A stretch of DNA of 64,000 nt from a virus (IMGVR_UViG_3300027734_000048:52567-116566); one strand, 5' to 3'. Positions 42,540 to 60,781 are shown, counted from the first letter of the stretch. Notes: generated by a model not told the origin, from the letters alone. Program-made: numbers and translations.

Positions 42540-43512
42540 ATGACAAATAGAATATGGGAAAGTCGTAATGACTACCAAGTTGAAAGTGACGCACAGCGTC
42601 TTGGATATGTAGCCTGTTCAGCAGGTTGTGGCAGAGTAACCGCTTGGTCGCTCTGTGTAATGTGTGGCGGTAACTATACCGAACACAATCTACTAGGAAA
42701 GGTGGTCAAATAATGACTACACTAAATGAAACACTATTCAGCACAATCGTGCACGAATACCATAATGGTGGTGTTCAATCCTCTTATGGATTAGACGCTT
42801 ACACTAGAAAAGAATTGCTAAAATTCTTATTCAGTAGCAAAGGTTGCTATTGCATAAATTGTATCTCTAAGGAGTCTAAATAATGAGTCTCTCTCTTGCT
42901 AATAAATTGGCACAAGATAAATTCTTTCTGCCCCCTTCAAAATATATCAACCACAAAGTCGTGGAAATTATTTCGCTAAATGACGAAACTGAAACTGTGT
43001 CAGTTACACTTCAAAAATATGGAATTAGCCGTAGTGCTAATGCCGTAAAAGGTAATCTAATAACTATTGAATTACCTTATGCTGAATTCAAAAATCTAAA
43101 TGGTTGGGGAAATAATAAATGAGCACTTTCATAAATCTTGATTCCGTTTGCGGAAAATCATCTGCCTCTGTTGATGTCTATGACTTAGACCTCAATCCTC
43201 ATGGCGTTATCTGTTGCGATAACTGCCGTTCAATTTTAATCTGCCGTAAGGCATGGGACTTTTTATATAAGGAGAAAAACTAATGCGAGTATTTGAATTC
43301 ACTACATTTATTGACATCGTTGCTAATAACTATGATGAAGCAATAGATATCTTTGATCATAAATTAAAATATGGAAACATAGATAGAAGCACTGTCTATG
43401 TTGCAGACATTGAGGAGAAAGAATGAAAACACTTCAAGAAAAATTAGATTTAGTTTCTAAAGAATTAGAACCAATACTTTGGGAATTACTAAATGAAATT
43501 GAAAATGAATAA
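42540..43512 (+). CDS. operon of about 6 small early ORFs (includes 42883-43122)
   Basis: Chained TAATG/ATGA overlaps with AAGGAG/GAAAGG RBSs; several CxxC motifs; hairpin plus T-tract at 43524-43552. Confidence 0.5.
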
Positions 43513-43552
43513 ATAAAAAACAAGATCGCAGAAATAAAACTCTGCGATTTTT

Positions 43553-43758
43553 GAACGTCCCCGTGTGACGAGAATCACATCAAAAATGTCCGATTTGTGC
43601 GTGTCTAAACTTGACTTTTTGACATTTATCTGCTAGTATTCTACTATAACAATTAAATAATGACTAATAAGGTAATGAGCCTAGCAAATAAATGTGACCA
43701 GTATCACAGTGAGCCTAGCGAATAAATGCCCTAAAATGTCAGCCCCTAATGGTAAGAT
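43553..43758 (+). promoter_or_regulatory. early promoter module with tandem promoters
   Basis: TGTGA-N6-TCACA 43564 and 43693; TTGACT-17-TAGTAT 43611-43639; TGAGCCTAGC(A/G)AATAAATG x2; TGTCAG-N10-TAAGAT 43737-43758. Confidence 0.8.
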
Positions 43759-43791
43759 AGTCTTATCAACTAAACGAAAGGAAGTCTAAAA

Positions 43792-44556
43792 ATGACTTAC
43801 ACTATAACACTAGAAACCTTTTCAGGTTCTACAAAAAAAATCGCTATGCCCTCAAAAGGTGCGGTTGCTCAATTCATCTCAACTTATCCAACTCAATTAC
43901 CTGTTGGCGTATCTGTCAAGGTTGCTTGCGATACTCTCGGAATTAGTGGCACACTTCGTGGCACTCTTACACCCTCAAACTCAAACTAAGAATAGGAAAA
44001 CTAAAATAATGGTAAAAGTAAATCACTCTCTAAATTTCGTTACAGAATTTGACGAAACACATCCAATCGCTAAACAAGCACTTTCAATTCCTGAATCAGA
44101 TTTGATTGCTATGCTTGAAGGAATGCTAAAAGAATTATTAGTGCCTGCACTAACTTCAACCCTTGATGAAATAAATGCTCGTGGCACTTACGCAATTCTA
44201 AAGGTGGCAGAATAATGATGACCCGTAAAGACTATGTAGCAACTGCTGAAATTCTTAGCAATTACTTTGCTACCTCTGTTTTTGATGAGCAAGGAGAAAT
44301 GCTATTTGCTGATTTAGTAGATGAATTTTCTCTAATGTTTGAAACAGATAATCCAAGATTTGACGCAACTAAATTTGCTATTGCTTGCTATGAAAAATTG
44401 GAGATGGCTAAATGATTTTAGATACTGGAACACTTCTTGCAATCATAATTGCACTTGGTGGATCAATAACAGTTATGTGTTTATTCTGGAAACAGAACGC
44501 AGAACTAACAAGAGAAAACTATCGACTGCGTAATGAATTGCGTAAATCAAAACTAA
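43792..44556 (+). CDS. operon of four small early ORFs (43792-43989, 44009-44215, 44215-44415, 44412-44556)
   Basis: RBSs and coupled stop/start codons; MTRKDY...A......F..DNPRFD..KF motif in 44215-44415. Confidence 0.55.
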
Positions 44557-44602
44557 TCTAAAATAAAATCCTAAGCATGATTTAAAACTGCTCTCAATTT
44601 TT

Positions 44603-44816
44603 GGGACGTCGGGGTCGGGCGTGTCGTCCACAGACTTATCCACAGGACTATTTGTGTGAGATTTATCACACGGCTTGAGCGTCTCACTATTTGGATTTAC
44701 TGGCTAGTAAGTTGATAATTTGTGTCTAATAGGCTAGACTTACATAGTAAGAAAAAATAAATAGTTTAGCAATTACGGCGTGTCGTTTAGAAAATGTCAG
44801 TCTAATATGCTAAGAT
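44603..44816 (+). promoter_or_regulatory. early promoter module
   Basis: GGGACGTC 44603; GGCGTGTCG 44618 and 44777; TTATCCACA 44636; TGTGA-N6-TCACA 44655; TGTCAG-N10-TAAGAT 44795-44816. Confidence 0.8.
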
Positions 44817-44850
44817 ATTTATATCAACAAAAAAAGAAAGAGGTTGGCAA

Positions 44851-45956
44851 ATGTCAGCAAATGTCTATACAATAGAAAACCTACTTGTAGGAAAGTCCTA
44901 TCGCTCACGCACCCTAACAGGTGAAATTATCTCAGCAGAGATACACCCTAAAGCAGTTTGGTATGAAAATTGTGAAACTTATCTTGTAGAAATTGCACCT
45001 AATAGCGGAAGCAATACTTGGGGTCGCAGAACTTATCGCACAGTTGCAGTAAAGACAGGTGAATAAGTAATGGGATATGTAGAAATTTTTAGAATTGACG
45101 AAAATGGTGCAGGTTGGGTAGACTTAGAGTCTGCAACACCCGATGAACTATTTACTTTGGAAGTGGGCTTACTAAATGAAGGTGCATTATTCACAACGAA
45201 AGAGGCAGACTAATGGAATATAACTACTCTCTAACTATTGCCTATGACGGCGAATTGGTATCAACAACACGAAGTGCAGATATGCTTGAGATGGTATCTG
45301 AATGGAATAAGTGTGTAGACTTTGGAGACGCTAAAGAATACGCAACCTATAATCTGTCAGACCCTACTGGCAAGATGTATACTAAGACTTTCTACCGCAA
45401 CGGAAATGTGAGCGTGAAATAATATGGGTTCAGTTACAGCATTAGGAATTAAAGATGAAGTCTTAGACCTAGAGACTCAGATTCTCTATCACTTAAAGGG
45501 TAATCACTATCCCCCTGTCCCCGCAGAAATGGTTGCCCCTTGCATAGAGGCTATTGACGCATACTACGAAGAAGATTACAATCGAGAAATTTCTATGCCC
45601 AAAGTTGGAGACTTTCAGATTATGTATAAAAATTCCATTACGGCACCTGCTTGGGCTATCGTGGAACAGCACCACCTGCAATTCTGGCTGCCAGAGGAGG
45701 AATACTAAAAATGTCTGCTACAATAAAAACTATGCAATTAATTTACGCAGACCTACTTACTCCAGATCAGTTGATGGAGGAAGATTTGATTAAGGTAGAT
45801 GGTGAAATAGTCACTGTCATAGGAATTGAATCTAATCCTAGTGGTGATATTTATTATGTAGGTTATGAAGATGACTTTGGTGATAAAGATGTAGTTGAAT
45901 TTAACTACGATCAAAAAGTTGAACTTTATGTATTCCGTGAAGATTTAGAAGATTAA
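44851..45956 (+). CDS. operon of five small early ORFs (44851-45066, 45069-45213, 45213-45422, 45424-45708, 45711-45956)
   Basis: Tightly packed ORFs; HL.GNHYPPVP motif in 45424-45708; acidic products. Confidence 0.55.
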
Positions 45957-45974
45957 CTAAAACCCCTAAAAAAT

Positions 45975-46184
45975 GGGACGTCCCGCAGTCGGGCGTGTCG
46001 CATGTGAGATTAATCACAATTTATGATTTGACATTTTTACTTTATCTCTGCTAGTATTAAGTTATGAAGAAGTCATCTGAGGAATTACGCAAACTAATGG
46101 AATTACGCCGTAGTAATGCTGCTTCCGCTGTGCCTTCTAAAAAGGCTTACAATCGCAAGAAATGTCAGTCTGAACTGCTACAAT
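45975..46184 (+). promoter_or_regulatory. early promoter module
   Basis: GGGACGTCCC 45975; GGCGTGTCG 45992; TGTGA-N6-TCACA 46003; TTGACA-18-TAGTAT 46028-46057; TGTCAG-N10-TACAAT 46163-46184. Confidence 0.8.
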
Positions 46185-46375
46185 TAAAATATCAACAAAA
46201 AGGAGAATAGCCCCTATGGGAAATATCGCAGATGAATTCTATGATGAATACTACGCAACTGTCTGTCCGTCTTGTCAAGAAAATTCGGTAGACGCATATG
46301 AAGAAAAATGCACTCATTGCTTACTAGAAGAAATGTCCACTACTTATAACGAAGACATCGCTCTAGAAATGAGTC

Positions 46376-47107
46376 TTGGTCTTGACTACTAAACTACTTC
46401 GCTCTAAAGATAGGAAAGTTACTAATGCTGTATCCCCTAATGGCAAGACTGCAACAATTGCTAACACTTTCGGATTACCCGCAGGAAAAGAATACTCATG
46501 CCCTGGAGCAACCTCAGTGTGTGAGTCAGTCTGCTACGCAGGAAAGTTAGAGAAACTCTTCAAAGGCGTTAAGGTTAACCTATTACATAACTGGGACCTG
46601 CTCAAAGACGCAGATCTAGAAACTATGCAGGACCTGCTCACTGAAATGATAAATGATTTCAAGAAAGACTGTATCAAGAAAGACGCCCCTATGCTATTTC
46701 GCATTCACTGGGACGGAGATTTCTTTAATGATACATACACGCAAGCCTGGAAGAATGTCATCCTAAATAATACTGATATTCAATTCTGGGTATATACACG
46801 AGTACAATCTGCAGCACTTATGCTTAAGGATATTGCTAATCTATCTTTATATTATTCTACAGATAGCGAGAATAAAGAAACTGGAATTAGCCTTAAGACT
46901 GTTCATGGAATTAAGTTAGCATATCTTGCTAAGAATTTTGCAGACGGTCAAGCAGATATGAAAGCGTTAACTTCAAAACCTGGTGCTAAGTGTCCTGAAA
47001 ATGCAAAACGCATTCCACTTATTTCAACTACTGGTAGTGCTTGTGTTTCTTGCAGATTATGTGTATACTCTAAGAGTGATATTGTATTCAGTGCGAGTAA
47101 AAAATAA
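46376..47107 (+). CDS. phage Gp88-like Cys-cluster (radical-SAM-like) protein
   Basis: FGLPAG...SCPGAT..C...CYA, FRIH..GDF, FW.YTR, terminal C..C.LC. Confidence 0.65.
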   Translation: MVLTTKLLRSKDRKVTNAVSPNGKTATIANTFGLPAGKEYSCPGATSVCESVCYAGKLEKLFKGVKVNLLHNWDLLKDADLETMQDLLTEMINDFKKDCIKKDAPMLFRIHWDGDFFNDTYTQAWKNVILNNTDIQFWVYTRVQSAALMLKDIANLSLYYSTDSENKETGISLKTVHGIKLAYLAKNFADGQADMKALTSKPGAKCPENAKRIPLISTTGSACVSCRLCVYSKSDIVFSASKK

Positions 47108-47197
47108 ATGATGAGTTTATTTTATTTATTAATGATAACACTAGTAATGTGTGCACTCCTTGGTTCTAGTGGGTTCTAGCGGATCCCCTGGAATTTT

Positions 47198-47408
47198 GGG
47201 ACGTCCCGCCCACCCCCATTTGTCAAGTTACGACACGCACGATTTTTGTGAGGTTTATCACAATTTAATGTCCGATTTATGACATTTTCGATTTGTATTT
47301 ATGACATTTATTTGCTATTATTAAGTTATGAACAAAACAACACCCGTAGTCCAAGATGTGAGATTTTTCTTGGCTGACTTGCGAAATGTCAGTAGGAAAT
47401 GTTATACT
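47198..47408 (+). promoter_or_regulatory. early promoter module
   Basis: GGGACGTCCC 47198; CGACACGC 47231; TGTGA-N6-TCACA 47247; AATGTCCGATTT 47268; TGTCAG-N10-TATACT 47387-47408. Confidence 0.8.
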
Positions 47409-47441
47409 TGGATTATCAACCAAACAAAAGGAGAAACAAAA

Positions 47442-47606
47442 ATGGCAGTAGCAACAGCAACATACAAGGTAGGCGACCTCTACACAACACAGAAGTCAAA
47501 GGTTACAGGAACAATTCAGGAGATTACTCCACAGGCAAATGGAAATGTTCGTGTAAAGTTAGATGTAAATGGCACACCTCGTTACACAACTTGGACAGCA
47601 AAGTAA
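47442..47606 (+). CDS. small SH3-like beta-barrel protein
   Basis: MAVATATYKVGDLY...VTGTIQEI...VRVKLDV.G..RYTTW; AAGGAG RBS. Confidence 0.6.
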   Translation: MAVATATYKVGDLYTTQKSKVTGTIQEITPQANGNVRVKLDVNGTPRYTTWTAK

Positions 47607-47680
47607 TCTAATTACACTTTCCTGAGTATGAAATAAAACTGCTCAACACCCCCAACTAACAGAAAAGGAAACAGACCCAA

Positions 47681-48103
47681 ATGGCACAACGCAAAGCAAT
47701 CTCAGTAAAGATAGCAACAGAAAAGGTAATCAAGGCACTAGAAGGCTCACTCGCTAAACTAGAACTTGACTACACATCACAAGAAGCAAGCGAAGCAAAG
47801 TATCAGAAAGCACACGAAGCGTGGAAAAAGCAAATTGGTGAGTGGGCTATTGCCAACTTCTCAAAGGCTGAGAACCTTCGCACTAACTATCGTTCTTGGA
47901 ACAACAACCTCAATGTTGATTTTGACATTGTAGTAAAGCAAGGCGACTTCCCAACTGAACCTGAAAAGGATTTTGAGGTTATCCATCAGCACACTTATCG
48001 TGAGCAGAAAGAGGAAATTGCTAACGCAATTCGTATTCTCAAGATGACAGATGAGGAAACAGTAAGCACAAGCACTTACAATGCTATTGCTCGTTACCTA
48101 TAA
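47681..48103 (+). CDS. hypothetical early protein
   Basis: 140 aa, AAAGGA RBS, highly biased codon usage. Confidence 0.7.
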   Translation: MAQRKAISVKIATEKVIKALEGSLAKLELDYTSQEASEAKYQKAHEAWKKQIGEWAIANFSKAENLRTNYRSWNNNLNVDFDIVVKQGDFPTEPEKDFEVIHQHTYREQKEEIANAIRILKMTDEETVSTSTYNAIARYL

Positions 48104-48300
48104 CTAAATAACGAAACAGGGGCAGTTTAGAGAGTGTTCTCGCCCAATGTCGTAAGTAAGAACTCTCATTATTAGGGCAAGGGGTTCAGAGCCTCTCCTA
48201 TGTTCGCCAGGCTGATTAGGGCGACAATAGAAATACTATAGAGCAAGGTTCCTGCAGACCTAAAGAAGCAGACATCCTGAGCACGATCCAAAAAGGCTCC
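48104..48300 (+). ncRNA. candidate structured non-coding RNA (tandem pseudoknots and hairpins)
   Basis: About 200-nt gap with pairings GGGC/GCCC plus GAGAG..TTCT/AGAACTCTC, TAGGG/CCCTA, TCGCC/GGCGA, AGGTT/GACCT plus CTGC/GCAG, ATC/GAT plus GAGC/GCTC. Confidence 0.45.
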
Positions 48301-48374
48301 CCGCAAGGGTCTTTGACAAATGTCAGTGGCCACTAGTACAATTAATATAAACAAACTAACAGAAAGAGGCCCCC

Positions 48375-48815
48375 ATGGACCAGCAATACCCAACAATAAT
48401 CAATGCAACTGATGAATTTAATCAGAAGCAGGCTGCAGCACTACAAGAAGCAATTGAAAAAAAGGATGCATTAATTGTATCTCTTCAAGACCGTATGTCT
48501 GCAATGTCTCAGCGCTCATATGCTGATTCAGCGGAGCGTAACCGTATGGTTGAATCAATGCAAGAGTGGACTCTAGAAGAGTTAAGCAATGAAACAATTA
48601 CAGAATCACAGGCCCAAGAAATTGCAGAAATTATGGGCTTTGACCTTACCAAGGAAGTTGAAGTTGAGGTTACCGTTACGTACAACCTAACACTGCAGGT
48701 ACCTCATGATGAGGACGCCGAATCAATTGTTAACGATATCGATTTTGAATCTGTATCTTATAATTCTGATAACATCACATGGCTATCGGCCAGTGTTGAC
48801 AGAATTGATTTTTAG
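48375..48815 (+). CDS. hypothetical acidic early protein
   Basis: 146 aa; preceded by TGTCAG-N10-TACAAT 48321-48342 and TTGACA 48313. Confidence 0.7.
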   Translation: MDQQYPTIINATDEFNQKQAAALQEAIEKKDALIVSLQDRMSAMSQRSYADSAERNRMVESMQEWTLEELSNETITESQAQEIAEIMGFDLTKEVEVEVTVTYNLTLQVPHDEDAESIVNDIDFESVSYNSDNITWLSASVDRIDF

Positions 48816-48918
48816 TAGGGGGCTACTAAATATAGACATGTCGAATGTCTTTAAACTAGGCAAGGGACCTGAGCATTGTCCATGTAAACGGCTCACTTTA
48901 AATTCTTTCAAAATTTTT

Positions 48919-49046
48919 GACGTCCCGCCTGTGGATAACTTTGTCAAATCGACACGCCGTTACGACTATATGATCTTTCCCACAATGTCCGATTTATCCA
49001 TGTTTAACTATCTGGATTTGCATATGTCAGTCAGTCCTGCTATACT
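48919..49046 (+). promoter_or_regulatory. early promoter module
   Basis: GACGTCCC 48919; TGTGGATAA 48930; CGACACGCC 48950; AATGTCCGATTT 48984; TGTCAG-N10-TATACT 49025-49046. Confidence 0.8.
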
Positions 49047-49078
49047 TAAATTTCAACAAACAAAAAGGAGAAAAACTC

Positions 49079-50101
49079 ATGGCACATGACCTAGAAACAC
49101 AAAACGGCGTTGCATCTTTTGCATCATTCCGTGAACCCGCTTGGCATGGATTGGGTACCGTATTTACAGAAGAGAAAACAACTAGCGAGATGCTATCAGC
49201 AGCAAATCTCAATGGTTGGAATGTTCGTCTGGAAGATTTGGAAACCCCATCGCATCTATCAAGCGACAAGTCGTACCAATATGTATTGCGTACAAACCCT
49301 ACAGACAACACACAAACCGATATTCTTGGAATCGTTGGTGAGCGTTATGTCCCTCTACAGAATGAAGATTTATTCTCATTCGGTGATAACATTCTAGATG
49401 GTGGTGGTCGTTGGGAGACTGCTGGTGCTATCAAGGGTGGTCGTGTAGTATTCGGCTCTCTTGCTCTTGAGCGTGAGACTGTACTAGACCCAAATGGTGT
49501 TGCAGATAAGGTAAAGACTTATTTGCTCATTAACACATCACACGATGGCTCTATTGCAATTCAAGCATCTATTACACCTGTTCGTGTTGTATGTGCTAAC
49601 ACTCTTAACCTTGCTCTTGGTGGCGTAGGTCGTAAGAAGAATAAGGGCATCAAGCAATCATTCAAGATTCGCCACACGCAAACAGCAGAAGGCAAAATCC
49701 AAATTGCTCGTGAGACTCTTGGTCTTGCTAATGCTTACATGGACGAATTCGACATCATGGCTAAGGCAATGATTGAGAAGGAAGTCAATGCTAAATCGTT
49801 TAACGATATTATTCTCGCTGCTTATCCTAAGCCAGAAAAAGATGCTAAGGGTGCAATCAAGAAGTGGGAAAACAAGGTCGATATTATTAACGACATCTAC
49901 ACAGGTGAATTTAATGGTATGATTGCTGGCAATGCGTGGGGTGCGTTTAATGCACTTACAGAACGCCTTGACTGGTACCGCTCTGCTCGTGGTGGTTCTA
50001 ACGAATCTATCCTTGCATCAGCATCAGGATTTGACCCTGCAATTAACGCAGAGAAAAATCGTTTGCTAAAAGTTGTACAAAATGTAATGCAACTTTCATA
50101 A
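49079..50101 (+). CDS. DUF932/TIGR03299-family phage protein
   Basis: MAH.LE...REPAWHGLG, ETAG...GG..VF, YLL..TSHDGS, TPVRVVCANTL, RHT, G.AWG.FNA.TE..D. Confidence 0.8.
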   Translation: MAHDLETQNGVASFASFREPAWHGLGTVFTEEKTTSEMLSAANLNGWNVRLEDLETPSHLSSDKSYQYVLRTNPTDNTQTDILGIVGERYVPLQNEDLFSFGDNILDGGGRWETAGAIKGGRVVFGSLALERETVLDPNGVADKVKTYLLINTSHDGSIAIQASITPVRVVCANTLNLALGGVGRKKNKGIKQSFKIRHTQTAEGKIQIARETLGLANAYMDEFDIMAKAMIEKEVNAKSFNDIILAAYPKPEKDAKGAIKKWENKVDIINDIYTGEFNGMIAGNAWGAFNALTERLDWYRSARGGSNESILASASGFDPAINAEKNRLLKVVQNVMQLS

Positions 50102-50139
50102 CAAAAAAATCCTGAGCACGATTTAAAACTGCTCAACAT

Positions 50140-50213
50140 GGTCCGTTAGAATAGTTGGTTAGTTCGCTACCCTGTCACGGTAGAGGTCACGGGTTCAAGT
50201 CCCGTACGGATCG
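50140..50213 (+). tRNA. tRNA-Asp(GTC)
   Basis: Acceptor GGTCCGT/ACGGATC; anticodon arm CTACC-CTGTCAC-GGTAG; GGTTCAAGTCC T-arm. Confidence 0.9.
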
Positions 50214-50343
50214 CAAGTAATAAATATGCAAGTGAATGCATAAAAATGCGGGACGTCGGCTGTGACCTAAATCACATGACATTTTTAATAAAAAACAATT
50301 ACGAAGACTTGATTTTTTCCCCAGTCCATGAGATAATTAATAT

Positions 50344-53173
50344 ATGACCCAAACAACCAAACCATACACAATAGATGAACTAATGCAAAAAATATATGAT
50401 GAGAATTTTTCTCATTTTGATTTCATGGACAACATGAATGGTGGAGAATGTGATTGTAAATTACATATAGCAATGGATTTGATGTATGAATATGGGGGTG
50501 GATTATGTTAGGCTATAATAAAACAGATCTAGATGATATGACAGAAGGTTTGTCAGTGGTCTTGGATACAATTAAGGATAACCCATATGTTTACAATAGC
50601 GTATGGAAAGCAAGAGACCTACTTGAGGGTCTATGGGCAGAAGGGTACTTTGACTACAAATGAAAGTTAAAATCAGTCTTGAACAAACCATAGATATTGA
50701 TGAAGCAATGTCTAATGATATAGGGTTTGAACTCTATGGTCCCTCTGATATGAGCACGGAAGATAAAGTAGATTATCTAATGGCTAGATTTGCTGAAGAC
50801 ATAGATACTATGGTAAAGTATGATGAAGTGTTGGGCAACATCTCAGTAGAATATATAGAGGACTAATATGTGGACTAAGTATAGTTATGTTTGTACAGAC
50901 TGTGATTCTTTAATTGAGGTTACTACAAATACCGTGCCAGTTATGGATCCAGGCTGTGTATGTGGCTTAGATACCTTCGTTACTCGTACTGCCATGGAGC
51001 CAACGGTACAGCCTAATGTGACGAGTATCACACCCACAGGGCTTGTAAAAATCAACTCAAACCCCTATAATTAATATATGGACCTAAATACATTTAGAGA
51101 ATATATCAGACTACACGCCATATCCCTTGAACAGGATTTGGAAAACGAGGACGGTGCTGATAGCATTGTTCCTTACCTAGAAGGAGCCATTCATGTATCC
51201 AAACACTACTTGGAGGTTTTAAATGGATAAGATGACATTAGACCCATACCTAATGAAACAGGTAGACATGGGTATGGACGGAGCAGACATTCTGCACGGA
51301 CACCTAAAGACTATGATGTATGAGGCTGAACAACAGTTAGACCTATGCATTGAGGCAGAGGAGTACTCAGAGGAAGCCATGGACTCTATGGCTCGTACGG
51401 AGGCTTCAGGATACCTTGACGCACTATCTGAGGTTTATGCCTTGACCTATGCCATTGCTTTTGCCAAAGAAGATATTAAGAACCGTAAGGAGATTCTTGG
51501 TGAATAACTTTGTTGAGTTAGATTATGATGAATGGGTTGATACGTATAAGCCTATTCTTAATCATATAGAGACAAATGCTTCCTTTGACGGTATGATGTT
51601 TGAGACCTATGGCGATGAGGTAGAGTTTGTCAAGGCAACTGATGAGAATCGTATCTGGATGTATGGAGACGGAGACGACGGTGGGTCTTACATATGGTCT
51701 GGCTGGGGCTTTGTTAATAGAATAGGATACTTTATCACTGAGGTACCTTTTCCTGATAATACTACTATTCAAGTTCAAGTCTCACTACCTTGGTTTTTCT
51801 GTGAGAACTGTAACGAAGAAATGGAAGACCCTGATAATACTATTAGAGATGCCTTTGATGAGGCAGACTTGCAAAAATGCCCTGAGTGTGCTACCCTTGA
51901 AGAAATGACCCTAGTAGGATTGGAAAATAAAATGGATAAAGACCCAATAAATGAAGTAGAACAAGATGAGGAAGAAACCGTGTTTCACTCATTCACAGAA
52001 CGGACGGTACAAATCTAATGCCTAAGTACACAGTAACAGCCACACGAGAGACTTACTATGAGTTTGAGATTGAGGCAGAGGATGAACTATCTGCTGAAGA
52101 TCAAGTAAGACAATTAGAACTTGAAGGTGACATTGAAACATATGCCTATGACTGGTATCCTTTAGAAGTACAATCAATCGAAGAGGAAGAGGAAGAGTAA
52201 TGGGAGCACGAATTAATTACGTATTCAAAGACAGTGAGTCAGGGCCTATGGTTGTACTCTATAGCCACTGGGGTCAGACTGAATGGGAGCGGGACCTAGC
52301 AATGGCCCTGCAACACGCAAAACCTCGTCTAGGTGATTCATCATATGGTACCCGTATGATTATTAGTTATCTTATTCAAGATAGCATTCTGGAAGAGACA
52401 GGGTTTGGTATCTATGCTATCGACAATGATGGCTATGACCTAGGAGAGCAAACCGTGCTCATCGACTTCACTAACAATACTATTACTGATAATGTATCAG
52501 TAGACTTTGATAAATTTGTGGCTGCGTATTCGCCACTAACTGTCTAAGGAGTGGGTCCCTTAGACTAATGGGGATGGGGTAAGTCCTGCAGATTTGCCCC
52601 TCCCCTTCTTTTGCGGTACAATAGATAAGAGAGGAGTATCATGCCTAGAAGTAGTATATATGCCAAGCCCTCGCATAATAAAGAATCAAGAAAAGCAGAG
52701 CAAATAGCAAAACTACTCACGGAAGATTTCTCTATTGACCTAGAGCGAGTTGGCTATTATTTGGTTAGAAATCTACCTATGATTGTTTTTCATAGGTTTG
52801 ATGTCCTTGCCTTGACAGCACAGGAAGAGCATGGTAAACTTATGGAAGAGATGAAAACAGGAGGCCCATCATGGCGGTAGAGTTTGCAGATAAAGCAGGT
52901 ATCTTAGGAACACTCTGGATCGAGTTCAGAGCAGATGAAGATTTTTCAGATTTTATTGAATACAATGACCTTGGATTACCAATGGCATATATGATTGCAG
53001 AAGGTTTGGTTAAAGAACTTACAGCAACAGGTGAATCATTAATCGATGAAACATTTAATATGTTTTGTGAATTGCTAGAAATCACAGAAGAAGATTTTGA
53101 TGCTCTTGATGATATTAACCTTGGTTCGGTTTTGATGTTTGCTTATAATAAAAAGCAGAACACAGCAGAATAA
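50344..53173 (+). CDS. run of about 11 small acidic early ORFs (includes 50660-50866, 50868-51074, 51223-51507, 51500-52018, 52018-52200, 52200-52547, 52641-52880, 52871-53173)
   Basis: Contiguous, coupled ORFs with RBSs; no function assignable from sequence alone. Confidence 0.55.
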
Positions 53174-60198: not shown

Positions 60199-60272
60199 GC
60201 ACCAGTAGCCAAGTTGGTTAAGGCCCCGAACTCATAATTCGGTTATCGTAGGTTCGAGTCCTACCTGGTGTA
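60199..60272 (+). tRNA. tRNA with CAT anticodon (Met or lysidine-type Ile)
   Basis: GCACCAG/CTGGTGT acceptor; CCGAA-CTCATAA-TTCGG; GGTTCGAGTCC. Confidence 0.88.
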
Positions 60273-60276
60273 CTAC

Positions 60277-60350
60277 ACATCTGTAACTCAGTTGGTTAGA
60301 GTACCTGCCTTATATGCAGAGAGCCGAAGGTTCAAGTCCTTCCAGATGTA
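60277..60350 (+). tRNA. tRNA-Ile(TAT)
   Basis: ACATCTG/CAGATGT; CTGC-CTTATAT-GCAG; GGTTCAAGTCC. Confidence 0.85.
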
Positions 60351-60372
60351 CGATACAATTAAATAGAGTATT

Positions 60373-60446
60373 GCGGATGTTGCATATTGGTAGTGCCTCT
60401 GCCTTCCAAGCAGAAGGGGTGAGTTCGATTCTCATCATCCGCTCCA
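60373..60446 (+). tRNA. tRNA-Gly(TCC)
   Basis: GCGGATG/CATCCGC-T-CCA; TCTGC-CTTCCAA-GCAGA. Confidence 0.92.
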
Positions 60447-60447
60447 A

Positions 60448-60520
60448 GTCCCCATGGTCTAGAGGCCTAGGACTCCACCCTTTCACGGTGGCAACACGGG
60501 TTCGAATCCCGTTGGGGATA
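60448..60520 (+). tRNA. tRNA-Glu(TTC)
   Basis: GTCCCCA/TGGGGAT; CCACC-CTTTCAC-GGTGG; GGTTCGAATCC. Confidence 0.92.
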
Positions 60521-60529
60521 CAATATCAT

Positions 60530-60603
60530 TCCTAGATCGTCTAACGGCAGGACAGGGGCCTTTGAAGCCCTTAATCGTGGTTCGAATCCATGTCTGGGAG
60601 CCA
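60530..60603 (+). tRNA. tRNA-Gln(TTG)
   Basis: TCCTAGA/TCTGGGA-G-CCA; GGGGC-CTTTGAA-GCCCT. Confidence 0.9.
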
Positions 60604-60604
60604 G

Positions 60605-60675
60605 GGGCCTAAAGCATTAAAGTGATGCTCAGGACTTTTAATCCTGAGAAGAAGGAGCATTACCTTCTAGGCCTA
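60605..60675 (+). tRNA. atypical tRNA-Lys(TTT)
   Basis: GGGCCTA/TAGGCCT; CAGGA-CTTTTAA-TCCTG; T-arm GAAGG-AGCATTA-CCTTC lacks TTC. Confidence 0.7.
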
Positions 60676-60679
60676 CTAC

Positions 60680-60752
60680 ACCTCTGTAGTTCAGTGGACA
60701 GAACGATGGACTTCTAAGCCATGCGTCGCAGGTTCGATTCCTGCCAGGGGTA
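60680..60752 (+). tRNA. tRNA-Arg(TCT)
   Basis: ACCTCTG/CAGGGGT; ATGG(A)-CTTCTAA-(G)CCAT; GGTTCGATTCC. Confidence 0.88.
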
Positions 60753-60781
60753 CAACATGGTATACTTTTAATGGAGGGCAT

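Follow-up and report, generated by a model that had tools for sequence, protein, structure and literature searches.

The window analysed here, 64,000 nucleotides (nt) of viral DNA (IMGVR_UViG_3300027734_000048:52567-116566), makes up the right-hand part of an IMG/VR phage record of 116,566 bp with 36% G+C. Its region from 43.5 to 51.5 kb is an early-type block of small plus-strand open reading frames (ORFs) with a DUF932 gene and a GP88-family gene, in which copies of a short RNA element, hereafter called the knot, recur between genes. A preliminary description had taken these copies for a five-member family of compact H-type RNA pseudoknots, four of them close behind a stop codon and one adjoining a tRNA-Asp gene. 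The phage is present in freshwater and lake metagenomes, where 9 runs contain at least half of the sampled words. In INPHARED, no record covers 80% or more of a 7-kb query (region 44000-51000), and thus no close relative was found among the deposited phages.

Copies of the knot in the window

All five sites were recovered where they had been described, and all are on the plus strand. The reference copy, PK5 (50107..50135), consists of a first stem, P1 (50107-50111/50120-50124, AAATC/GATTT), a one-base loop L1 (C 50112), a second stem, P2 (50113-50118/50130-50135, TGAGCA/TGCTCA), a one-base loop L2 (C 50119) and a third loop, L3 (50125-50129, AAAAC). It lies 5 nt past the TAA of the plus-strand DUF932 gene (49079-50101; Pfam PF06067, E 6.6e-44) and ends 4 nt before the plus-strand tRNA-Asp (GUC) at 50140..50214, whose 5' end is an RNase P site. 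PK1 (44566..44594) has the same P1 (44566-44570/44579-44583, AAATC/GATTT), with L1 at 44571, L2 at 44578, L3 at 44584-44588 and 4 of 6 pairs in P2 (44572-44577/44589-44594); it begins 4 nt after the TAA of the plus-strand ORF 44412-44561. In PK2 (47618..47645), P1 is TTTC/GAAA (47618-47621/47630-47633), L1 is at 47622, L2 at 47629, L3 at 47634-47639, and P2 (47623-47628/47640-47645) contains one G.U pair. This copy is inside an operon, since the next ATG (47681) is only 35 nt past its end; upstream, 11 nt away, is the TAA of the plus-strand ORF 47442..47606, which encodes 54 amino acids (aa) and is the unit with the highest depth of RNA-library contigs.

The two remaining copies are less regular. 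PK4 (48865..48895) pairs GGAC with GTCC in P1 (48865-48868/48878-48881) and has L1 at 48869, an L2 of at least 2 nt, a P2 of 5 bp (48870-48874/48891-48895) and a long L3 in which the AAAC end is followed by G; 49 nt separate it from the TAG of the plus-strand ORF 48375-48815. Its type of P1 and L3 recurs in four relatives (loci L011, L047, L096 and L113). PK3 (48274..48299), with 3 bp in P1, 4 bp in P2 and no AAAC at the end of L3, is a decayed half-copy. The nearest upstream stop, that of ORF 47681-48103, is 170 nt away, and the best promoter-like site (48313-48342) begins 13 nt beyond. The 170-nt non-coding stretch between them, 48104-48273, looks like an insertion, because relatives L048 and L192 carry a canonical knot directly past the homologous gene; a structured small RNA in 48104-48300 was considered and found unsupported (fold z = -1.12).

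A covariance model built from relatives assigned 49.1 bits to PK5 (E 8e-12), 43.6 bits to PK2 and 38.1 bits to PK1 (E 9e-9), as against 17.4 bits for PK4 (E 0.005) and 12.7 bits for PK3 (E 0.11), which it aligned in the 5' half only, over model positions 4-17. Hence three copies are clean (44566, 47618 and 50107), that at 48865 belongs to the family as a divergent member, and that at 48274 does not count as a full one. The proximity of four copies to stop codons and the tRNA-Asp adjacency of PK5 stand as first described. A sixth copy (43.8 bits) was found outside the window, on the minus strand near the other genome end, between an ORF and the next gene (G000:C1:1533-1567). A strict pattern search of the window returned PK5 as its sole match, and a loose anchored scan allowing G.U pairs was too noisy to be used.

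Fold, conservation and occurrence of the family

As judged from the comparison of sequences, the family is shown to be an H-type pseudoknot of about 28 nt carried on the coding strand. In the consensus, P1 has 4-5 bp of free sequence closed by an invariant C-G pair, L1 is a single C, L2 is 1 nt long, P2 has 5-6 bp and is mostly UGAGCA/UGCUCA, and L3 is A-rich with AAAC at its end. P1 was assessed by searching IMG/VR with a pattern that fixed only L1, P2 and the end of L3, leaving P1 unconstrained. At least 118 loci (138 instances) were retrieved, compared to 1 locus with the same pattern reversed. Of 111 unique instances, 94 have a P1 of 4 bp or more; when the upstream halves are swapped, the mean is 13.4 and the maximum 22. 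At the junction, P1 is closed by C-G without exception, the next two positions are paired in 111/111 and 110/111 instances, and the three pairs beside the C-G include all four Watson-Crick types (for example AU 43, GC 31, UA 26, CG 10, unpaired 1). The proposal that P1 is kept paired by compensatory change is thus upheld among homologues. For P2, sites were selected by P1, CC, G and AAAC only, with no rule on P2 itself. All six pairs form in 163 of the 228 sites so obtained and five of six in 32 more, while 28 sites from shuffled sequence never exceeded 4. Compensated variants occur at 4 of the 6 P2 positions, and the outermost U-A is frequently open. An alignment of 142 distinct copies that had been chosen for their pairing gives a covariation score of 0.398, compared to 0.109 after shuffling and at most 0.058 after sliding. 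Since both stems are supported, the H-type topology follows from their order, and the original reading of the element as a compact RNA pseudoknot is borne out.

The conserved letters are the closing C-G, the C of L1, the two junction-side pairs of P2 and the AAAC end of L3, all of which meet at the helical junction; the distal P2 pairs and all remaining P1 pairs vary. By analogy with known pseudoknots, P1 and P2 would be coaxially stacked, with L1 in the deep groove of P2 and the adenines of L3 in the minor groove of P1, giving a compact and probably stiff knot organized around its conserved junction. Luteovirus-type triplex pseudoknots and the coremin xrRNA, both of which act as mechanical blocks, are conserved in the same manner (PMC10321173, PMC10520033). 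L1 and the 5' strand of P2 together read CUGAGC, a perfect complement to GCUCAG, which is common in tRNA D-arms; P2 shares its four pairs with a typical tRNA D-stem, and the knot model weakly matches 60617-60637 on the minus strand, antisense within tRNA-Lys (60605-60676). This likeness may be a coincidence or a hint of origin.

The family extends well past the early genes of this phage, to other phages and to bacterial contigs, and the IMG/VR loci that carry it span 30-69% G+C. Five deposited phages have one copy each, scoring 35-46 bits: the Paracoccus phages ParKuw1 and ParMal1 (Autographiviridae), with the copy in the early region, the cyanophage S-RIM4 (Kyanoviridae), a gut Acutalibacteraceae phage, and a freshwater Microviridae genome in which the copy lies between the genes for a DNA-binding protein and the capsid. 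As cultured carriers, S-RIM4, ParKuw1 and ParMal1 make the knot directly testable. In a species-representative genome collection, at least 118 contigs match the pattern, with a P1 of at least 3 bp in 79; 39 of the contigs listed look like chance matches, which is about the number expected. Many Saccharibacteria, Aminicenantes, Acidimicrobiia and Firmicutes are among the genuine matches in this bacterial collection, and part of them may be prophages or mis-binned phages. A 37-nt query found nothing in complete genomes of E. coli, a result valid for that collection and sensitivity only. A match in Javan252 was discarded as due to chance: it is inside RecT and lacks the 3' strand of P2.

The statement that the motif belongs to no named family proved correct for Rfam 15, in which the knot has no match even at E<=10. 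At gathering scores, the window yields 8 tRNAs only; region 44000-51000 at E<=10 yields the tRNA-Asp and a chance match to snoR60; and among 46 related loci (20+14+8 at gathering, 4 of them again at E<=0.1) no match falls on the knot. The preQ1-I riboswitch (RF00522) is a 34-nt H-type pseudoknot with a P1 of free sequence and an A-rich L3 that ends in AAAAC before P2. Nevertheless, RF00522 has no match at E<=10, an L2 of 1 nt leaves no such ligand pocket, and P2 has 6 bp; furthermore, the knot is found past genes, not in 5' leaders, and does not sequester a Shine-Dalgarno (SD) sequence. Self-cleaving ribozymes (hammerhead, twister, pistol, hatchet, hepatitis delta virus-like) were likewise rejected: no Rfam model of these matches the knot, and the hammerheads found near it are separate and downstream. 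A tRNA-like structure with an NCCA end is not indicated either, as CCA occupies +1..+3 in 14/187 members only. Literature searches brought up no description of the knot; a catalogue of 10,006 viral candidate RNAs (PMC10690425) may include one of its two hairpins in the supplements. The knot is therefore probably a new and widespread RNA family of a known fold type, with a job that its position makes plausible.

As far as PMC10321173 describes them, the luteovirus-type pseudoknots that stimulate -1 frameshifting, such as those of beet western yellows virus (BWYV) and potato leafroll virus (PLRV), are close in design. They too measure about 28 nt, with a stem 1 of 4-5 bp, a one-base junction, an L1 of 1-2 nt that contributes a C to a triple in the deep groove of stem 2, and a loop rich in A that occupies the minor groove of stem 1. 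Frameshift and read-through signals also resemble the knot in their spacing from the decoding site. The phage knot differs in lying past stop codons and in having 6 bp, not 3, in stem 2. A frameshift or read-through stimulator was rejected: the spacing from the stop fits (8-12 nt), but a tRNA, a promoter or a new SD and start follows. No overlapping downstream frame was seen at the knot, and upstream of its UGA none of the three frames is preferred, each having a median of 6-7 open codons; no search for slippery heptamers was made.

Stop codons, downstream RNAs and a possible role at mRNA 3' ends

The knot always runs in the same direction as the genes around it, and 180 of 188 unique contexts have an ORF of at least 40 aa ending upstream. 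Counted from the stop codon, the 5' strand of P1 has its last base at 8 nt in 18 of these contexts, at 8-12 nt in 73 and at 8-14 nt in 85, with no case at 0-7 nt. For a ribosome halted on the stop codon, the first P1 pair would then be some 10-14 nt away from where its P-site codon starts, which by established ribosome geometry is the mouth of the mRNA channel; the sharp minimum suggests that any closer placement would let the ribosome melt the knot. Downstream starts are spaced loosely, with a bimodal distribution; those that are not close by lie at least 45 nt away or are missing within 300 nt.

What follows the knot is in many cases a structured RNA. A tRNA on the same strand begins 3-13 nt past the knot in 34 of 195 copies (31 Asp, plus Gln, Ser and Leu), PK5 being one of these cases, and no copy has a tRNA within 100 nt upstream (0/195). 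The 14 loci with several copies contain 6 tRNAs, each with a copy immediately ahead of it. Locus L085 has a type III hammerhead 2 nt past the knot (RF00008, 34.2 bits, E 0.001, below the gathering score), and a stem check revealed a full hammerhead core with three stems past the knot in L005, L171 and L211; in these four loci, the cleavage site is 6-12 nt past the knot. Hammerheads in the gene gaps of phage and prophage operons are thought to act as "punctuation" that turns long transcripts into gene-length mRNAs (Perreault et al. 2011, PMC3088659). The knot resembles those described there in being a small element of gene gaps, directly upstream of such hammerheads, and differs from them in having no hammerhead core and no sign of self-cleavage in its sequence. 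Finally, the DUF2800 RNA (RF02960) starts at the nucleotide directly past the knot in 6/6 cases (L016:285-445; L137:5432-5592; L146:5051-5208(-); L176:912-1071; L190:1-137(-); L244:427-584). The knot may thus be an unrecognized 5' module of the DUF2800 motif, or mark a processing site at its 5' end. A permuted transfer-messenger RNA (RF04321, 66.8 bits) is present at L022:11778-12019, on a phage contig with several knots. Both flanks of the knot are G-poor; on the 3' side, C at +1 and +2 is followed by T-rich sequence.

In bacterial contigs, no conserved neighbour was found among the flanking genes, and guilt by association is therefore of no help. One group shares a conserved 20-aa ORF, of pattern M-K-[RK]-[FY]-x-[VIM]-P-R-x-A-H-C-x-x-G-C-x3-S, whose UGA stop codon is within P2. 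It occurs across bacterial phyla (L130, L135, L139, L142, L154, L165, L179, L187, L191, L219, L227 and L235; for instance L187:5301-5363), with its own SD, synonymous-site variation and its own terminator, among neighbours that vary by genome; Pfam and NCBIfam searches placed it in no family. Selenocysteine insertion or read-through at this UGA was rejected, as the sequence after it is not conserved in frame and the phages show no frame preference. That such a conserved ORF terminates within the knot hints that cells, too, may make use of it.

Terminator hairpins, repetitive extragenic palindromic (REP) and intercistronic stem-loops and the phiX174 terminators are 3' stabilizers: located after a cistron, they stall 3'-to-5' exonucleases and prolong the life of upstream segments. 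They are also found between cistrons of one operon, and they are simple hairpins without conserved sequence. The knot occupies the same post-cistron position, the difference being that it is a sequence-conserved pseudoknot common to virus realms. On positional grounds, the reading we favour, with a probability somewhat below one half, is that the upstream mRNA carries the knot as a 3'-end cap. Placed as close to the stop as a terminating ribosome permits, the knot would remain folded; the transcript would be cut just downstream, by RNase P at a tRNA, by a hammerhead or by another nuclease, or would end in a U-run; with only a few nucleotides of tail to degrade, 3'-to-5' exonucleases would then stall at the knot, and the upstream mRNA would outlast the downstream RNA. 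Lying near a cutting site, the knot would stay with the upstream RNA, and where RNase P or a ribozyme severs it from the downstream RNA it could serve the upstream message only. In the window, the capped mRNAs would be at least those ending at 44561, 47606, 48815 and 50101, with PK5 capping the 3' end of the DUF932 mRNA. Among the three functions originally suggested, the positional evidence (the tie to the upstream stop, the RNase P and hammerhead sites) favours the 3'-end nuclease block; a processing signal is still a candidate, and the protein-binding decoy found no support. By analogy, the knot may work most like a 3' stabilizer hairpin or an exoribonuclease-resistant RNA (xrRNA).

Several observations weigh against such a cap. 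About 80% of the copies have no recognizable cutting site directly after them, and the cluster of seven tRNAs at 60199-60753 (Met, Ile, Gly, Glu, Gln, Lys, Arg) has no knot ahead of it. An SD-preceded start is found 25-39 nt past the knot in 41 of the 188 contexts, and one Saccharibacteria type is in a 5' leader, 11 nt before the SD; both fit a role for the downstream gene as well. At the 20-aa ORF a cap seems redundant, because every ribosome translating it would have to melt the knot and because a normal terminator lies downstream. The nested structures predicted for single copies are weak (-1.7 to -6.5 kcal/mol, z < -2 in 2/6) and contain a P2 hairpin only, but the method is blind to the knot, the evidence for which is comparative, not thermodynamic. 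Lastly, a plain roadblock does not obviously seem to need such conservation of P2, L1 and L3 from Microviridae to tailed phages.

This conservation is what would be expected if the knot were a specific recognition element, an aptamer-like tag for a small ligand or for a conserved cellular or phage factor, such as an RNase, an RNA-binding protein, the ribosome or RNA polymerase. Its function would then lie in being bound rather than in its stiffness, for instance to mark a cutting position or to recruit a partner. P2, the C of L1, the closing C-G and the AAAC end are near-invariant across 30-69% G+C, two virus realms and several bacterial phyla, and the DUF2800 RNA starts at the very next nucleotide in every case. 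A self-contained tertiary fold predicts the same pattern, however, with the junction-side pairs most conserved and the distal P2 pairs covarying; the post-gene position is unlike that of known riboswitches in 5' leaders, and no Rfam riboswitch model matches. We regard such a tag as unlikely. A 5'-to-3' roadblock, halting RNase J, Rho or a ribosome that scans or reads through from upstream, to the advantage of the RNA beyond the knot, would account for the placement of the knot at the leading edge of a ribosome on the stop codon and for the 41 contexts with a start 25-39 nt away. It would also agree with the architecture, which is that of the coremin xrRNA and of the luteoviral frameshift knots (PMC10520033, PMC10321173). 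Coremin (xrRNA-C) and its Watson-Crick variant xrRNA-WCC, from plant and other eukaryotic RNA viruses, many of them unrelated, are a mechanical block to Xrn1 and to scanning ribosomes. Like the knot, coremin is a tiny element of 3' untranslated or intergenic regions, with a 4-bp hairpin closed by C-G, a one-base L1 (C or Y), and an A-rich spacer (...UUAAAC...) followed by a short second pairing with the loop. The coremin loop given in PMC10520033 is YGAD or YGNNAD, whereas that of the knot is C-UGAGCA-N, 8 nt long, and so falls outside this definition. The second stem of coremin has 3 bp, mostly non-canonical, as compared to 5-6 Watson-Crick pairs in P2 of the knot. Coremin has the spacer GUUAAACUAC and requires a second hairpin; the knot shares only the ...AAAC part of the former, and no conserved hairpin was seen in its 3' flank, which is pyrimidine-rich and variable, although no systematic search for one was made. 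In addition, coremin acts on a eukaryotic 5'-to-3' enzyme, while the position of the knot argues for the protection of upstream RNA in bacteria. The likeness is one of architecture. Since a tRNA or hammerhead cut, in at least 38 cases, severs the knot from the RNA downstream, which it then could not protect, and since the spacing is sharp to the upstream stop and broad and bimodal to the downstream start, a 5'-to-3' roadblock appears quite unlikely.

Termination was also considered, in the form of a leaky intrinsic terminator or pause in which P2, braced by P1, would serve as the hairpin for the host polymerase. Copies lie at ends of transcription units, and at least 5 T are found in +1..+9 in 58 of 187 members (31% compared to 11% at random), with at least 6 in 30. 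Moreover, the early region of the window has no plus-strand hairpin-plus-T-run site: in 43500-51500, all 6 such sites are on the minus strand, against a chance expectation of 5.3. The preliminary description had stated that no copy carries a U-tract, which is true of PK2, PK3 and PK5 and not of PK1, with TTTTT at +4..+8, or PK4, with 5 T in +1..+9. Its conclusion that these are not ordinary terminators still agrees with the family as a whole, 129 of the 187 members having fewer than 5 T in +1..+9. PK2 is within an operon, and RNA-library contigs from four lake metatranscriptome runs cross PK2 in 4/4 runs, PK3 in 3/4 and PK1 in 2/4, although such contigs cannot prove single transcripts nor show RNA ends and the libraries may hold DNA. 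The bins with PK4 and PK5 (48840-49106 and 49908-50174) have nearly no contig cover and are uninformative on either copy. Bacterial copies have a separate canonical terminator downstream (a hairpin plus T-run 20-40 nt later, seen by eye at 4 loci), and terminators do not show sequence conservation. Canonical terminators within 100 nt past the knot are neither enriched nor depleted (9/186 compared to 49/1158 at other crude ORF ends). An ordinary intrinsic terminator was thus rejected, and a leaky one seems improbable.

An equally small chance is given to a folding insulator, a mark of "punctuation" keeping the message end from mispairing with a following tRNA, ribozyme, DUF2800 RNA or ribosome-binding site. 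The knot does abut structured RNAs (a tRNA at 3-13 nt, a hammerhead at 2 nt, the DUF2800 RNA at 0 nt) between G-poor flanks, but most copies have no structured RNA after them, insulation would require no conserved sequence, and the 5' half of P2 complements a sequence common in tRNA D-arms, as in the antisense match to tRNA-Lys at 60617-60637. Very improbable is a role at the DNA level, as a cassette boundary, recombination site or replication structure of single-stranded DNA (ssDNA). The recurrence of the knot between small accessory genes with repeated promoters and a GGGACGTCCC palindrome, and its presence in an ssDNA Microviridae genome, would suit it; on the other hand, the element is always co-oriented with flanking genes and tied to stop codons, both stems covary, including G.U pairs that form on the transcribed-sense strand only, and the copies are not copy-paste insertions, because P1 differs within one genome.

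A bolder form of the 3'-cap reading, which we offer tentatively and consider rather doubtful, is that the knot would be the first prokaryotic counterpart of viral exoribonuclease-resistant RNAs: a self-sufficient 28-nt triplex pseudoknot used as a universal "full stop" by phages of at least two realms and by some bacteria, carving transcripts into stabilized messages together with RNase P, hammerheads and other cutters, with the near-invariant junction as a minimal stall for 3'-to-5' exonucleases. If the cap reading is right, the family, although uncatalogued, would be among the smallest structured RNA families known and at the same time among the most widespread that phages carry. Phages without ordinary early-region terminators would have in it a means to set and protect mRNA ends, and mRNA stability would be connected with the processing of tRNAs and ribozymes. 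The knot would also provide a 28-nt annotation marker for gene ends and strand, and a very compact 3' stabilizer or insulator for synthetic biology.

Promoter-like sites and repeats of the early region

The early region of the window carries further repeated elements. An early-promoter-like family, (TTGnnA)AATGTCAG, a spacer and TAnnAT, followed by a shared leader (ATCAAC...AAAGGAG), is found at 43734-43775, 44792-44833, 46160-46201, 47384-47425, 48318-48349, 49022-49053 and 50551-50575. The starts of RNA-library contigs agree with promoter-like sites, lying just downstream of several. Upstream of promoters are two operator-like inverted-repeat families, TGTGAGnTTnATCACA and AATGTGACnAGTATCACA, with sites at 44655-44670, 46003-46018 and 47247-47262, and also at 43562-43579, 43691-43708 and 51015-51032. 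A palindromic element of the GGGACGTCCC type recurs between transcription units (44603-44612, 45975-45984, 47198-47207, 48918-48927, 50252-50259), often near a CGACACGC/GCGTGTCG word. Contigs of three RNA runs end at 45973-45977, on a GGGACGTCCC-type site that has no knot, which is a weak hint only.

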